The position numbers and the translations under genes are program-made. Of a stretch of DNA of 64,000 bases, positions 11,302-17,633 are shown one piece after another; position 1 is the stretch's first letter, and each line of letters begins with the position of its first letter. Under the pieces are notes generated by a model, which searched no databases, was not told the DNA's origin, and saw nothing but the letters and a program-made list of their open reading frames with translations. The stretch lies in NCBI RefSeq assembly GCF_055900595.2, contig NZ_CM148325.1; one strand, given 5' to 3'.

Positions 11302-14300
11302 ATGAGTCTCTCTTTCAGTGAAGCAAAATTAGAACAAGCGATCATTGAACTGTTACAGGATCAGGGATATCAACACCTGATCGGCGATAATGTCCCACGT
11401 TCAAGTCTCGATCAGGTCATTATCGAAGACGATCTCCGTCATTATTTAGCGGCACGCTACCAGCCTGATGGCATTACTGAAGAAGAGATTCAGCGACTGA
11501 TCAAACAGTTCACCACGCTCCCCGCTTCCGATCTTTATGAAAGCAACAAAACATTTTGTCGCTGGCTGGCAAATGGTTTTCTGTTCAAACGCGACGATCG
11601 GCAACAAAAAGATCTCTATATTGAATTGCTCGACACCCGGCATCTACCTGCCGCACTGCGCCAGATATTTGACGCCGAAGATGTCCCGTTGCAACAGGCG
11701 GCGGAACTCCCGCCCTCCTATATTAATCCGCCGCTTAACCGGATTAAGATTGTTAACCAGCTTAAAATCTCTGGTAAAGATAATCAGACTCGTATTCCTG
11801 ACGGCATTCTCTATATCAACGGTCTGCCACTGGTCGTCTTTGAATTTAAAAGTGCGGTGCGCGAGCAGGATGCCAGTATTGGCGATGCCTGGAAGCAGCT
11901 CTGTAAACGCTATCGCCGGGATATTCCGCAACTGTTTATCTACAACGCGCTCTGCATTATTAGCGATGGCGTTAATAACCGGATGGGCAACCTGTTTGCG
12001 CCCTATGAATATTTTTACTCATGGCGCAAAGTCACCGGTAATGAAAACCGTGAACAGGACGGAATTCCGTCATTGCACTCAATGATTCAGGGGCTGTTTC
12101 ATCCGGTACGTCTGCTGGATGTGATTAAAAACTTTATCTGCTTCCCGGATAAAGCCAAGCACGAAGTAAAAATTTGCTGCCGTTATCCGCAGTACTATGC
12201 CGCCCGCAAACTCTATTACAGCATCAAGCAAGCGCGTAAACCTTTCGGTAGCGGTAAAGGCGGCACCTACTTTGGCGCAACGGGCTGTGGCAAAAGTTAC
12301 ACCATGCAATTTTTAACGCGTCTTTTGATGAAGAGCGTGGAGTTTGCCAGCCCGACCATTGTTTTGATCACCGACCGCACCGATCTGGACGATCAGCTTT
12401 CTGCGCAAATGTGCAATGCCAAAAATTACATTGGCGACGACACCATCGTTCCTGTTACCAGCCGTGAAGATTTGCGTAATCAACTGGCGGGACGCAATAG
12501 TGGCGGTGTATTCCTGACAACGATCCATAAATTCACCGAAGACACCGAACTCCTTTCTGAACGCAGCAATATCATTTGCATCTCGGACGAAGCACATCGC
12601 AGCCAGGTTAACCTCGACCAGAAAGTCATCGTCGATAAAGAAAGCGGAAAAGTGCGCAAAACTTATGGCTTTGCGAAATACCTGCACGATTCACTGCCAA
12701 ACGCCACCTATGTTGGCTTTACCGGAACTCCGATTGACGCAACACTCGATGTCTTCGGTGAGGTGATCGACAGTTACACCATGACCGAATCCGTTCAGGA
12801 TGAAATCACTGTACGCATCGTGTACGAAGGCCGTGCGGCTAAAGTGATCCTGGACTCCAGCAAACTGGAAGAAGTCGAAAAGTATTACGAAGAGTGCGCA
12901 AACGCAGGCACCAATGAGTGGCAAATCGACGAAAGCAAAAAAGCCACCGCAACCATGAATGCGGTACTGGGTGATGAAGATCGGTTAAAAGCCCTCGCGG
13001 AAGATTTTGCTAAACATTATGAAAAACGCGTAGCCGAAGGTTCCACCGTAAAAGGCAAAGCCATGTTTGTTTGTGCCAGCCGTGAAATTGCCTGGGATTT
13101 CTACCGTCAGCTTAAAGCTATTCGCCCTGCCTGGTATGAAGTGAAGCAAGCCCCCGATGGCGTCGTCCTGACAGAACAGGAGCAAAAAGAGTTACCGCCT
13201 TCTGAAATGGTGAAGATGGTCATGACGCGCGGTAAAGATGACGACGAGGCGCTTTATGATTTACTGGGCACAAAAGAATATCGTAAAGAGCTGGATAAGC
13301 AGTTCAAAAACGCTAAATCGAATTTCAAAATTGCCATTGTTGTTGATATGTGGCTGACCGGTTTTGACGTTCCTGAACTGGATACCATCTATATTGATAA
13401 GCCCTTACAAAAACATAACCTTATCCAGACCATTTCTCGCGTTAACCGTAAACTGGAAGGCAAAAGTAAAGGGTTAGTGGTGGACTACATCGGCATTAAA
13501 AGTCAGATGAACCAGGCACTGGCAATGTATTCCCGCATTGATGCCACCAACTTTGAAGATATTCAGCAATCGGTAATCGAAGTTAAAAACCATCTCGATT
13601 TGTTGGGGCAAGTCTTTTACGAATTTGACAGTCGGGATTATTTTAGTGGTGAGCCACAAGCGCAATTATCCTGCCTCAACCGCGCGGCGGAATTCGTTCT
13701 GAGTACCCAGAAAGTTGAACGTCGTTTTATGGGACTGGTTAAACGCATGAAAGCCGCCTACGACGTCTGCTGCGGCAGCGAAGCATTATCACAGACAGAA
13801 CGTGACTATATTCACTATTATCTTGCTGTTCGTTCAATTGTTTTCAAACTGACGAAAGGTGACGCACCGGATGTTACCCAGATGAATGCACGCGTTCGCG
13901 AAATGATTGCAGAAGCGTTAAAAGCTGATGGCGTAGAAGAGATTTATTTTCTTGGCGATAAAAAAGCGGAATCCATCGATATTTTTGACGAAGATTATCT
14001 GGCGCGAATTAACAAGATCAAACTTCCGGCAACGAAGATCCAGTTATTACAAAAATTACTGGAAAAAGCAATCAGCGACTTCAAGAAAGTGAACCAGTTG
14101 CAAGGGATTAACTTCACCCGCCGCTTCCAGGCGATTATAGATCGTTATAATGAGCGGCGAGAAGATGATGTACTCAACGGTGAAGAATTCGATACATTCA
14201 GTCAGGAAATGACCGATATTATCTATGATATTAAAACCGAAATGGGTACCTGGGCCGACTTAGGCATTGATATTGAAGAAAAAGCCTTTTTCGACATTCT

Positions 14301-14565
14301 TGCTCATATGCGCGATAAATATCAGTTCACCTATGACGATGAAAAAATGCTGTCACTGGCAAAAGAGATGAAAAGCGTGGTTGACAACACATCGAAATAT
14401 CCTGACTGGAGTAAACGCGATGATATTAAAGCGAAACTGAAAGTTGAACTTATTCTGCTTCTACACAAGCATAAGTTCCCGCCAGTAGCGAATGATGATG
14501 TTTATATGGGTGTGCTGGCACAGGCAGAGAATTTTAAAGAACACCATATGAGTGCTTTAAATTAA
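11302..14565 (+). CDS. hsdR: Type I restriction enzyme R subunit HsdR
   Basis: ORF track 11290..14565; helicase motifs GATGCGKSYT (Walker A) and ISDEAHRS (DEAH box) seen. Start placed at second in-frame ATG (MSLSF), which has GGAG upstream; 11290 is the alternative. Confidence 0.9.
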   Translation: MSLSFSEAKLEQAIIELLQDQGYQHLIGDNVPRSSLDQVIIEDDLRHYLAARYQPDGITEEEIQRLIKQFTTLPASDLYESNKTFCRWLANGFLFKRDDRQQKDLYIELLDTRHLPAALRQIFDAEDVPLQQAAELPPSYINPPLNRIKIVNQLKISGKDNQTRIPDGILYINGLPLVVFEFKSAVREQDASIGDAWKQLCKRYRRDIPQLFIYNALCIISDGVNNRMGNLFAPYEYFYSWRKVTGNENREQDGIPSLHSMIQGLFHPVRLLDVIKNFICFPDKAKHEVKICCRYPQYYAARKLYYSIKQARKPFGSGKGGTYFGATGCGKSYTMQFLTRLLMKSVEFASPTIVLITDRTDLDDQLSAQMCNAKNYIGDDTIVPVTSREDLRNQLAGRNSGGVFLTTIHKFTEDTELLSERSNIICISDEAHRSQVNLDQKVIVDKESGKVRKTYGFAKYLHDSLPNATYVGFTGTPIDATLDVFGEVIDSYTMTESVQDEITVRIVYEGRAAKVILDSSKLEEVEKYYEECANAGTNEWQIDESKKATATMNAVLGDEDRLKALAEDFAKHYEKRVAEGSTVKGKAMFVCASREIAWDFYRQLKAIRPAWYEVKQAPDGVVLTEQEQKELPPSEMVKMVMTRGKDDDEALYDLLGTKEYRKELDKQFKNAKSNFKIAIVVDMWLTGFDVPELDTIYIDKPLQKHNLIQTISRVNRKLEGKSKGLVVDYIGIKSQMNQALAMYSRIDATNFEDIQQSVIEVKNHLDLLGQVFYEFDSRDYFSGEPQAQLSCLNRAAEFVLSTQKVERRFMGLVKRMKAAYDVCCGSEALSQTERDYIHYYLAVRSIVFKLTKGDAPDVTQMNARVREMIAEALKADGVEEIYFLGDKKAESIDIFDEDYLARINKIKLPATKIQLLQKLLEKAISDFKKVNQLQGINFTRRFQAIIDRYNERREDDVLNGEEFDTFSQEMTDIIYDIKTEMGTWADLGIDIEEKAFFDILAHMRDKYQFTYDDEKMLSLAKEMKSVVDNTSKYPDWSKRDDIKAKLKVELILLLHKHKFPPVANDDVYMGVLAQAENFKEHHMSALN

Positions 14566-14811
14566 TTATGAAGGCCGGATAATTCAATAATTATTCGGCT
14601 TACTCATTTATAAATATGGTAAAAACATCATAACAATATCTATAAATCATAGTTAAAAAAATCACGCTAACTCATTAAAAATATAAGTATTTTCACATTA
14701 TGGGTAAAAATACCATTCTCCTTTTGAGCTTAACAAATACAGACTCTATCCATTCATAACAGATCCGTGCATAATTTCATTTATCGCAGCACAACCAAAA
14801 CACAACACAAC

Positions 14812-14926
14812 CATCACATCACATCACATCACATCACATCACATCACATCACATCACATCACATCACATCACATCACATCGCATCACATCGCATCACATC
14901 ACATCGCATCACATCGCATTACATCA
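14812..14926. repeat. pentanucleotide microsatellite, about 23 units of CATCA with CATCG/CATTA variants
   Basis: Read directly: (CATCA)n runs uninterrupted from about 14812, with CATCG and CATTA variant units toward the 3' end, in the AT-rich intergenic region between hsdR and the downstream S-M module. Confidence 0.9.
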
Positions 14927-15220
14927 ACTTAACTTAAGTTAATAAATTTAAAACATATAACGCACAAAATTGGTCGTCTGATCTTTAGCGGAAAAAATCA
15001 TGACTGTAAAGTCATCATGTATTAACTACTTTTCCAGATATCACACCATTAAAAAAAATAAAAAAAATCAATTAGTTATAAAATTTTCAAACATAACACA
15101 TAACATTAATCTGATGCTCTCCAAAAAAATTAAGCAGTGCAGGGTGACAACCCCATAGCAGTACGCTACCTTACTGAAAAATTACTTAATACGATACTGA
15201 AAGTTAGAAGGAGCCACACC

Positions 15221-15391
15221 ATGAGGAAAAAGAAAGGGTTAAACCGAGTTATTTGCTTGTTTTTGATAACAATTTTATCACATTTAGTGTCTGATGATGA
15301 TATCCTATTATTTCAGTTAGAGGATCTGTCAAAAGCAAATACCTCTATGGGTATTCATCTTTCCGTTGATTTCAAACATGAGACCAAATGA
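15221..15391 (+). CDS. small ORF (56 aa) translationally coupled to the downstream half-S gene; hypothetical
   Basis: In-frame ATG (aa 29 of ORF 15137..15391) preceded by AGAAGGAG at 7-nt spacing; stop overlaps the next start as ATGA. Product MRKKKGLNRVICLFLITILSHLV... has a basic N-terminus and one hydrophobic stretch. No family recognised. Confidence 0.35.
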   Translation: MRKKKGLNRVICLFLITILSHLVSDDDILLFQLEDLSKANTSMGIHLSVDFKHETK

Positions 15392-15969
15392 TTATGAAAA
15401 ATCTATCAGAGATAGCATATGTTTTTGGTGGACACTCATTTCGTACCAAAGCTGAAGCTGCAACAGGTTGCATCAAACTTATTCAGATAAAAGATATACA
15501 GGCAGGCATATTTGGTGATTTCTCGTCACTTCCTTTTGCAGATCTTTCAGAAGAAAAACTAAAATTCAACCTAAAAACAAATGATATTCTTTTACCTTTA
15601 AGAGGCGAAAGGATAGCAGCAATGATGATAGATAACGAAAATAATGTTGCAGTTACTACAACGAATCAAATTGCCATTATAAGAATTAATAGCAATTTGA
15701 TCACTCCAGAGTATTTGTTATATTTTCTAAATGCACCGAAAGGTATTAATCTGATAAATGAACTACAAGGTAACGGATTGGTTACAAACCTTAGCATAAA
15801 AAAACTTACAACATTAACATTACCGATTCCATCATTGGATATTCAATATGAAGTTATTAACCTTCATAACATGTGGACAAAACAAAAAGAGACCTTATGT
15901 AGTTTAATAGAAAATGGTTCTGCATTGTGTCATGCAACAATCAATAAGTTAATCTACAAAGGAGAGTAA
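15388..15969 (+). CDS. half-size (single-TRD) Type I-like specificity subunit (HsdS-like)
   Basis: 193 aa; begins like a target-recognition domain (LSEIAYVFGGHSF) and ends with the conserved TRD-distal segment (ITPEYLLYFLNAPKGINLINELQGNGLVTNLSIKKLTTLTLPIP). AT-rich codon usage. Followed 3 nt later by the MTase gene. Confidence 0.7.
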   Translation: MIMKNLSEIAYVFGGHSFRTKAEAATGCIKLIQIKDIQAGIFGDFSSLPFADLSEEKLKFNLKTNDILLPLRGERIAAMMIDNENNVAVTTTNQIAIIRINSNLITPEYLLYFLNAPKGINLINELQGNGLVTNLSIKKLTTLTLPIPSLDIQYEVINLHNMWTKQKETLCSLIENGSALCHATINKLIYKGE

Positions 15970-15971
15970 AT

Positions 15972-17231
15972 ATGAAAATACAAGAATTTATAAGCATATT
16001 ACAATCTATCCCCTGCAATTCCCTGGATAAATACCAGAAAATGCTTATTTGTTTTGAAGCTACTGTACTAACTTATTTACATAAGGACTCTGCCAAGAAA
16101 ATTATATCAGTAAGTGAAATGGATATTGAACATATTTACAGACACTCGCCGTCATTAAATAAAAACAAAGTAACATGGGATGAGTTTTCTTATATTTTTT
16201 CAGATATAATCTTTCATATAAAGTCCTCTAACATGGATGTCAATAAATATATATCAAATATATTTCAACACCTTTGTTACGATTATCATCACAAAAAATT
16301 CTCTAAAATAGATATTATTAATATAATCACCTCGAATATTGAGCAACTAAGACCTCTATCTCAAAGGCATCATACTCCTAATGAGTTGGTTGAATTAATG
16401 AGTAAAATAGTCAATATCCAAGATGGTGATATTTTTTATGATCCTGCATGTGGTTCAGGTGAGTTCATTTCTGCAATGTTTAATAAAAATGTCATGATAT
16501 ATGGTACTGAAAGCATCATAGAAAGAGCTAAAATATCAAAATTAAAAATGCTCGCAACCGGAAATAATCCTTTAAATATTACGACGCCATATTTTAACGA
16601 TAATAATCTACCTGAAAAATTTGATATTATTTTATCCAACCCCCCTTTCTCTCTAAAAATACCTGAAAATATGCAAAAAAAAATTTGCATTTATGGAGAA
16701 CCACCTGTTTCAAATGCTGATTTTATATTTTTACAATTCTGCATTTACAAACTAAAAAATAATGGATGCGCTGCTATCATCATGCCGGACAGCATTTTAT
16801 TTAGAAGTGGAAAAGAACAAGAAATACGTAAATCATTTATTGAGAAAGGGCATATTTCCACCATTATTTTTTTACCGAAAGGTATTTTTAAAAACACTTA
16901 TGTACCAACAAGCATTTTGCTACTACGCAAGCAAAATGACTATGACGACATCCTATTCATTGATGCAAGAGATAAAACAACCTTCAACAACGATCTTATA
17001 ATTCATTTATTTACTGAACGTGAAAATAATAAGTTATCGAAGATTGTTACAAAATCAGAAATTGCTGATAATGATTATAACTTGTCAGCAGCATTATATT
17101 TTAAAGAAGAAACAGAAATACCAGAAATAGAACAATTAATAGACAATCAAAAATACCTCAGCAGTAAATTACAGGATTTACATTATGATTTCATTCACAC
17201 TATATCCAGATTATCACCAAAAAATGAATAA
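15972..17231 (+). CDS. compact gamma-class N6-adenine DNA methyltransferase (HsdM-like, 419 aa)
   Basis: Motif I DPACGSGEF and motif IV NPPFS in HsdM-like order and spacing; AGGAG precedes the ATG. Strongly AT-rich. About 130 N-terminal residues unassigned. Confidence 0.8.
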   Translation: MKIQEFISILQSIPCNSLDKYQKMLICFEATVLTYLHKDSAKKIISVSEMDIEHIYRHSPSLNKNKVTWDEFSYIFSDIIFHIKSSNMDVNKYISNIFQHLCYDYHHKKFSKIDIINIITSNIEQLRPLSQRHHTPNELVELMSKIVNIQDGDIFYDPACGSGEFISAMFNKNVMIYGTESIIERAKISKLKMLATGNNPLNITTPYFNDNNLPEKFDIILSNPPFSLKIPENMQKKICIYGEPPVSNADFIFLQFCIYKLKNNGCAAIIMPDSILFRSGKEQEIRKSFIEKGHISTIIFLPKGIFKNTYVPTSILLLRKQNDYDDILFIDARDKTTFNNDLIIHLFTERENNKLSKIVTKSEIADNDYNLSAALYFKEETEIPEIEQLIDNQKYLSSKLQDLHYDFIHTISRLSPKNE

Positions 17232-17261
17232 TTTGCTGCAAAACGCCACGCTAAGCTCCCC

Positions 17262-17284
17262 CCTTCCCTGCACGGGAAGGGGAA
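17262..17284. terminator. hairpin between convergent MTase gene and yjiS
   Basis: CCCTTCCC-TGCAC-GGGAAGGG inverted repeat read directly. Coordinates approximate. Confidence 0.4.
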
Positions 17285-17292
17285 TTGCCCCC

Positions 17293-17457
17293 TCACTCCA
17301 CATCCTCCCTGCGTAACCCAATATCTCTCAACCGCTCATCACTCATCTGCTGTAACACGCGTCGGGTCTGCATTTGCCGCCGCCAACGCCTCACCGCCTG
17401 CCAGAGTTGCACCAGGCCGATAAACGGCGGTTTAGCTCTGTTTTCGTGAAATTCCAT
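17293..17457 (-). CDS. yjiS: DUF1127-family small protein YjiS (54 aa)
   Basis: Not in the ORF track (<60 aa). My reverse-complement translation: MEFHENRAKPPFIGLVQLWQAVRRWRRQMQTRRVLQQMSDERLRDIGLRREDVE. Divergent from yjiR. Coordinates approximate. Confidence 0.7.
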   Translation of the reverse strand: MEFHENRAKPPFIGLVQLWQAVRRWRRQMQTRRVLQQMSDERLRDIGLRREDVE

Positions 17458-17633
17458 CTGCTGCCTCCTCATCTTTCAGAGGCTTCATCATCCGCCTTCT
17501 GGCAGTTCACAATACAGATGCAAATATCAGTTTTATTTAACATACAGACAGGTTAAAACAACATCTGCATCCGGTTTTTTAGCCTCATCTGTACCGGTTT
17601 TTCTCTCTGTATGGTCCAAATAAGGAGTACAGC

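Follow-up and report, generated by a model that had tools for sequence, protein, structure and literature searches.

The CATCA tract at positions 14812-14926 of the window, by which we mean the whole 64,000-nucleotide stretch of DNA analysed here, is probably a hypermutable compound pentanucleotide microsatellite, which lies in the non-coding leader of a genomic islet, is driven by slippage and is most probably neutral. The tract differs in length between isolates whose surrounding DNA is near-identical, it lies outside the genes, and it is missing from the relatives of the gene cassette that it precedes. The tract and the pentamers on either side of it are as follows.

14802-14811, + strand: (ACAAC)2, a pentamer in phase with the tract, with 0-5 copies in other isolates as parsed from the alleles
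14812-14926, + strand: CATCA tract of 23 units, (CATCA)13 at 14812-14876 and then 10 mixed CATCA/CATCG/CATTA units; 3-28 units elsewhere
14927-14936, + strand: (ACTTA)2, a pentamer in phase with the tract, with 2-6 copies across isolates and six in lineage L074 (L074 9516-9550)

An earlier, sequence-only reading of this DNA had reported a 23-unit CATCA tract here, and both the unit count and the position hold. It had also called the array perfect, which is true of the 13 units at 14812-14876 but not of the remaining ten; units 14-23 (CATCG CATCA CATCG CATCA CATCA CATCG CATCA CATCG CATTA CATCA) bear out the decay into CATCG and CATTA variants that it had described at the 3' end. TRF put the period-5 array at 14801-14926 (25.4 copies, 89% matches), a span longer than the tract itself because two in-phase ACAAC units sit before it. 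Head-to-tail repetition of so short a unit (23 units, 13 of them perfect) goes far beyond chance: a 20-nt probe allowing at most one mismatch matched the window 14 times and 100 dinucleotide-preserving shuffles not once, which excludes a chance origin. An AGTTA pentamer beside the tract keeps the same 5-nt phase, in 1-2 copies across isolates; taken as a whole, 14800-14940 is a compound microsatellite, built from three or more in-phase pentamers.

E. coli seldom carries long microsatellites, and elsewhere in the 64-kb window there was no other run of at least three perfect copies of a 4-, 5- or 6-nt unit. Stretches of at least six perfect CATCA units numbered only 55 among 100,044 species-representative genomes; these loci, which include Kluyvera ascorbata and Xenorhabdus hominickii, are unrelated to the islet and none shares its sequence. 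The CATCA/TGATG tract of X. hominickii (L042 10328-10392) is intergenic and has 13 units, and that of K. ascorbata (L058 380-409) is intergenic and has six, neither with flanks similar to those in the islet. Our literature search turned up no description of a CATCA repeat here.

The window is the E. coli immigration-control region, as judged from its match to the RefSeq annotation of the poultry strain MB52, with genes in the order btsT, yjiX, yjiA, brnTA, mrr-like endonuclease, hsdM, hsdS, hsdR, yjiS, yjiR, rpn gene and mdtM. The tract lies between hsdR and yjiS, among the following features.

11302-14565, + strand: hsdR, which ends a complete Type I system (mrr-like endonuclease, hsdM, hsdS, hsdR) and lies immediately 5' of the islet
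14572-14601, + strand: terminator-like hairpin ACTCATTTAT 3' of hsdR, from the terminator scan, with 13 pairs, only four of them G-C, and a poor T tail
14582-17238, no strand: AT-rich islet of ~2.66 kb between hsdR and yjiS, comprising the repeat region and a three-gene cassette
15221-15391, + strand: 56-aa ORF, the first cassette gene, with Shine-Dalgarno sequence AAGGAG at 15208-15213 and an ATGA overlap with the S gene
15388-15969, + strand: S gene, a Type I-like specificity subunit of half size (193 aa), for which PF01420 is listed once
15972-17231, + strand: M gene, an HsdM-family N6-adenine methyltransferase of 419 aa, with PF02384 and PF07669 and without HsdM_N

The 1087-aa hsdR product was identified from its Pfam HSDR_N/ResIII domains, the ORF list and the MB52 annotation. 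The tract starts 247 nt 3' of the hsdR stop codon and ends 294 nt 5' of the first cassette ORF, in agreement with the ~300 bp of the sequence-only reading if the 56-aa ORF is taken as that first ORF. Homology to islet-free E. coli stops at 14581, within the hairpin, which sets the left edge of the islet (in megablast, query 1-282, window 14300-14581, was covered in 1,083 other genomes), and restarts near 17238, at yjiS. The islet, with a G+C content of 30% against 47% for the window, is present in just one complete E. coli genome of the 5,426 searched, that of MB52; the same genome gave the only match when 14582-15130 was run as a distant blastn query against all 5,426. Scanning metagenomes with a right-flank pattern, and again with the conserved promoter/operator pattern, gave no match; neither metagenomes nor plasmids nor species representatives yielded a source for the leader DNA, and Rfam gave no meaningful match over 14400-17600. 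A plasmid origin of the cassette was considered and rejected, the nearest plasmid homologues of M being Acinetobacter hsdM genes with ~29% identity. The islet is rare and horizontally acquired. Elsewhere in the window, 9-nt/18-nt tandem repeats lie at 27378-27486 (AACATCTGC, 3.9 copies with 100% matches, and ACCTAAAATACCTGGAAC, 3.4 copies); these may form an in-frame coding VNTR, a pentapeptide-repeat protein gene being placed there by coordinate transfer from MB52.

The genes downstream of the tract had been described as an S-M module, and S and M genes are indeed present, but the module really has three genes, headed by the 56-aa ORF. The product of this ORF has a basic N-terminus followed by a hydrophobic (signal- or transmembrane-like) stretch and a conserved C-terminal motif, G-x-x-L-x-x-DFK-x-E. 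It is encoded by the first gene in every S-M cassette relative, always with 56 aa, 30-41% identity and 12 positions invariant across the relatives; neither NCBIfam nor PADLOC gave a match to it, and no Pfam assignment is on record. From the length of the S subunit we infer that it is half-size, with a single domain. The M gene has no R gene of its own adjacent. Relatives with 45-49% identity in M retain all three genes and lie elsewhere in the same chromosomal region, where those in L007-L012 are found after symE, between a NERD/UvrD helicase gene and mrr, or after an mrr fragment. On these sequence comparisons the 56-aa/S/M family appears to behave as a mobile module, and no recombinase of its own was seen beside the cassette in the flanks shown for L007-L012. 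Among complete E. coli genomes, no relatives of the cassette were found beyond MB52.

In order to follow the tract among isolates, we compared the window with 17 other assemblies recovered by exact-protein look-ups, giving 18 carriers. (In the collection blocks, the longest carrier contig was 2-5 kb in 215 of 413 for the S protein and in 252 of 441 for the 56-aa ORF.) The tract has three units in L083, five in L073 and L074, nine in MB52, 10 in L069 and L082, 13 in L075, 14 in L005, 16 in L003 and, with a different internal pattern, in L072, 17 in L084, 20 in L078, 21 in L002 and, again with a different internal pattern, in L080, 23 in the window, at least 24 in L006, where the contig ends within the tract, and 28 in L004 and L071, some of these counts coming from short-read assemblies, which may mis-size repeats. 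All the length differences among the 18 assemblies are multiples of five. Repeat number is clearly not identical in all isolates, and the hypermutability anticipated by the sequence-only reading is borne out, since tracts of 14, 21, 23 and 28 units occur with 0-2 substitutions in the flanks. L002 has 21 units against the 23 of the window and no flank difference in 8,522 bp; L004 has 28 units and two substitutions in the 8.5-kb flank; and L005 has 14 units, one substitution and one indel. The tract therefore shows the whole-unit copy-number differences between closely related genomes that are typical of a VNTR, and, as the units vary while the flanks are near-invariant, it mutates far faster than the flanks acquire point substitutions. 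Most of the variation lies in the uninterrupted 5' run, which has 5-18 units within the window's clone, although the 10-nt CATCG-CATCA motif, too, is gained and lost between alleles. Among the expanded lineages the 3' end takes three forms, gagta, ata and thtt.

These differences might be artefacts of assembly or sequencing laid over a tract that is actually stable. Many of the carriers are draft assemblies, the L006 contig ends within the tract, and cassette contigs are mostly 2-5 kb long, suggesting that assemblers break at the repeat, as short-read assemblies probably do. We nevertheless consider this explanation very improbable, because the differences are exact multiples of five with coherent patterns of CATCG interruption, because megabase contigs and complete chromosomes also differ (nine units in MB52, 16 in AP025754, 28 in CAXUAK010000001, 21 in CDDJTF010000001 and 17 in CDDILV010000004), and because L004 and L071, which are independent records, both have 28 units in the same pattern.

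Two homopolymer features also vary in and near the cassette.

15051-15067, + strand: A8-T-A8, with run lengths of 8/8 in the window's clone, 8/7 in L005, 7/7 in L073, L074 and L082, and 6/7 in L084
16675-16683, + strand: A9 run inside the M ORF, which is A10 in L078, an isolate of the same clone

The first comprises the two A8 tracts of the sequence-only reading, at 15051-15058 and 15060-15067. At the second, the A10 of L078, assembly GCA_029846055, is the sole difference over the 2-kb cassette and splits M into 249 and 149 aa; in L084, assembly GCA_974481785, the C5 at 16641-16645 has become C4, with M split into 227 and 186 aa. Each split is either a true homopolymer frameshift (an OFF variant) or an error of long-read sequencing. 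The A9 run reaches the nine or more units used as the published in-ORF criterion of phase variation for mononucleotide repeats (PMC7383803), and, if the L078 frameshift is real, it is a better ON/OFF candidate for the methylase than the CATCA tract.

The CATCA tract itself had been proposed to be a contingency switch, or a spacer modulating promoter strength, for the downstream methyltransferase. We found this unsupported, the tract being non-coding, outside the predicted promoter and absent from relatives. The promoter prediction is the following.

15144-15176, + strand: putative cassette promoter, with -35 GTGACA at 15144-15149, a 17-nt spacer and -10 TACCTT at 15167-15172

This candidate has the top forward score of the sigma70 PWM scan over 14560-15235, a scan made independently of any alignment, and it coincides with an upstream block (TGACAAC ... 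CAGTACGCTAnCTTACTG) that is near-invariant across cassettes with 45-49% protein identity, in which the -10 reads TAnCTT. An inverted repeat, CAGTA-N8-TACTG (15159-15176), overlaps the predicted -10 and, on its sequence, may be a candidate operator for a regulator. Between the tract and the 56-aa ORF, a strict consensus scan gave no promoter on the forward strand. A promoter within or upstream of the tract was rejected: the strict scan gave none on the forward strand, the best PWM candidate lies downstream, at 15144, and the PWM scan of 14560-15235 gave no comparable forward promoter 5' of the tract. The 3' end of the tract stays at a constant 217 bp from the predicted -35, so that the number of units leaves the promoter geometry unchanged. 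In core-promoter repeats, such as those of hifA/B, porA and opc, the array is placed between the -35 and -10 elements or runs into them, so that its length sets the spacer; here the promoter is predicted at 15144-15172 and the tract ends at 14926.

Nor does the tract appear to switch a reading frame. The forward strand of CATCA is stop-free in all frames, and a GTG-initiated ORF of 56 aa (14767-14937) spans the tract and would encode a peptide, (HHITS)n, with its length and frame set by the number of units. We find such a peptide scarcely credible, however: the GTG at 14767 has no Shine-Dalgarno sequence, all three forward frames stop at most 15 nt past the tract with nothing downstream fused to them, and the gene callers of the public record list no gene there. 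On the reverse strand, (TGATG)n gives TGA in each frame. A coding potential of the tract was therefore rejected, on account of the stops in all frames just 3' of it. The criterion applied to pentanucleotides in a survey of in-ORF contingency loci is a unit length not divisible by three and at least three units (PMC7383803), and in these respects the tract qualifies, but it is intergenic and not inside an ORF that it could regulate. Moreover, the repeat is not conserved with the gene across relatives or alleles, as would be expected of any contingency locus. No tandem repeat was found upstream of the cassette in the relatives L007, L008 and L009 (by TRF) or L012 (by eye), the conserved DNA of the relatives begins only ~100 nt before the 56-aa ORF, and the islet is found with intact genes at just 3-5 units in L073, L074 and L083.

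Taking these results together with the length variation, we infer that the tract evolves by slippage in a manner poorly corrected by mismatch repair. Replication slippage would add or remove one or more 5-nt units, and the resulting 5-nt loops would exceed the limit of MutS, which recognises insertion/deletion loops of up to four nucleotides (PMC8235422), and so be poorly corrected. A 3-unit proto-repeat, the apparent ancestral state, would have expanded independently in at least three lineages, and A-to-G substitutions (giving CATCG) would have arisen within the array and then themselves been copied by slippage. Since the tract lies outside ORFs, is 217 bp from the probable promoter, is absent in relatives and is dispensable, its length variation is most likely neutral, and the expansions of ACAAC and ACTTA in other lineages point to a slippage-prone, low-complexity spacer rather than a tuned switch. 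Some observations sit less easily with neutrality. Alleles of 13-28 units persist in the clone, and expansions have occurred independently, which could reflect selection for length or mutability; the tract adjoins a DNA methyltransferase module, and in other bacteria no class of gene is controlled by SSRs more often; at the Haemophilus hmw loci, SSRs 70-213 bp upstream of a start codon modulate expression (PMC2651432), so that an upstream position is compatible with an effect; and the cassette promoter is predicted rather than mapped.

The only viable form of the earlier switch model is one in which the tract acts from a distance, as an upstream SSR that grades cassette transcription. It might do so by varying the distance or helical phase (5 bp being about half a turn) between an element to the left of the tract and the promoter at ~15144, or, in the manner of nadA or hmw, by lying within a long 5' UTR transcribed from an as yet unrecognised promoter further upstream. 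The tract is hypervariable and lies upstream of a methyltransferase cassette, and precedents exist outside the core promoter in nadA (PMC4235727) and hmw (PMC2651432, PMC12721329), the hmw repeats, which lie 69-213 bp upstream of the start codon, modulating expression in Haemophilus (PMC2651432). We think this unlikely here. At any length of the tract, its 3' end remains fixed 217 bp from the predicted -35, and odd and even unit numbers are both found, with no sign of a phasing constraint. No good forward promoter is predicted 5' of the tract, and the tract RNA, unlike that of hmw, has no hairpin (mean pairing probability 0.12-0.16; MFE 0 for the pure tract); an hmw-like hairpin was rejected on a predicted fold of 14602-15400, in which the tract is unpaired with a mean pairing probability of 0.16. 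The related cassettes retain the conserved promoter block without any repeat, and the islet is intact at 3-5 units.

A different role would follow if the RNA of the tract were a length-dependent Rho loading (rut) site on read-through from hsdR, with Rho loading on (CAUCA)n and terminating before the cassette promoter, thereby shielding the cassette from transcription of the hsdMSR operon; how efficiently it did so would follow the length of the tract, 15-140 nt depending on the allele, where ~70-80 nt are needed. The composition is apt, in that 14795-14872 contains 32 C and no G, tying for the most C-over-G-skewed 78-nt forward stretch in the 64 kb, and the tract RNA is predicted to have no stable fold (MFE 0 kcal/mol) and to be left unpaired in an 800-nt transcript. 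The tract also starts 247 nt past the hsdR stop, untranslated and behind a hairpin with a poor U tail. It thus offers what is asked of a rut site (PMC6407284), 70-80 nt or more of unstructured, ribosome-free RNA that is rich in C at regular spacing and poor in G, and it has no ORF with a ribosome-binding site. However, the argument is one of composition only, and rut sites are predicted with little specificity, RhoTermPredict calling 23,930 of them in the whole K-12 genome (PMC6407284); hsdR read-through is plausible at most, given the weak U tail of the hairpin; and a long CATCA run is missing from the lineages with 3-5 units. Any such activity could, moreover, be an incidental by-product of expanding a C-rich repeat and not a selected function, and we hold a Rho loading site to be improbable. 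Unlikely, too, is the broader proposal that the tract is, as Rho pad or distal modulator, a rapidly mutable heritable regulator of the orphan Type I-like methyltransferase, which together with the A9 run would make a phase- or rheostat-variable methylase (a 'phasevarion'). E. coli is not known to use SSR contingency loci. Were either minority reading true, the locus would be an uncommon E. coli example of DNA methylation under SSR control, or else the first Rho loading site with a polymorphic length.

As a microsatellite evolving by slippage, the reading that we prefer, the tract has an interest of its own. It could type the carrier clone very finely, separating isolates that are identical over the surrounding 8.5 kb, and its carriers display the stages of a microsatellite life cycle, from a 3-unit proto-repeat through independent expansions to interruptions that are then copied. 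Its expansion in a species proficient in mismatch repair fits the notion that 5-nt loops are larger than the four-nucleotide limit of MutS.

The hsdM gene of H. influenzae carries a GACGA repeat. Like the phase-variable hsdM and hsdS genes of the published survey (PMC7383803), our locus combines a pentanucleotide SSR with a Type I-like methyltransferase module, but their repeats lie in the ORF and shift its frame, whereas the CATCA tract is intergenic; the A9 run inside M fits this class better than the tract does. A heptanucleotide repeat upstream of H. influenzae hmw1A and hmw2A was reportedly described by Dawid in 1999. The hmw heptanucleotide resembles the tract in being an intergenic, strain-variable SSR (13-38 units at hmw) located 5' of the first gene, and its repeat number grades expression without a frame shift (PMC12721329). 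It differs in lying within the 5' UTR and forming a long, RNase III-cleaved hairpin with a G-rich arm; the CATCA tract lies 5' of the likely promoter, with no promoter predicted upstream of it, and its RNA is predicted to be unpaired, so that a transcribed repeat forming a hairpin with a complementary arm was not found here. The repeat of N. meningitidis nadA is flanked by defined NadR and IHF sites near the promoter. As far as the account in PMC4235727 of the work of Metruccio (2009) goes, this TAAA repeat is a distal-promoter SSR, and the tract, being likewise upstream of a core promoter, would need spacing from a distal element to have any effect; however, it ends a fixed 217 bp from the predicted -35, has no known flanking regulator sites, and has no counterpart in the relatives, which lack the repeat. 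With rut sites the tract shares an RNA of more than 78 nt that is C-rich, G-poor, untranslated and predicted to be unstructured, 3' of a stop codon, but we know of no natural rut site that is a simple repeat or is length-polymorphic. Closest to it are the MLVA/VNTR typing loci, which are likewise non-coding, head-to-tail arrays of short units with exact-unit differences between near-identical isolates and no demonstrated function. For E. coli, up to 28 copies of a 5-nt unit are out of the ordinary, the units of its published MLVA loci being mostly of at least 6 nt, and the CATCA locus differs further in being a compound of at least three in-phase pentamers and in lying in a rare islet, so that it types carriers only. 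The CATCA tract is thus a new locus of a known type, the microsatellite.
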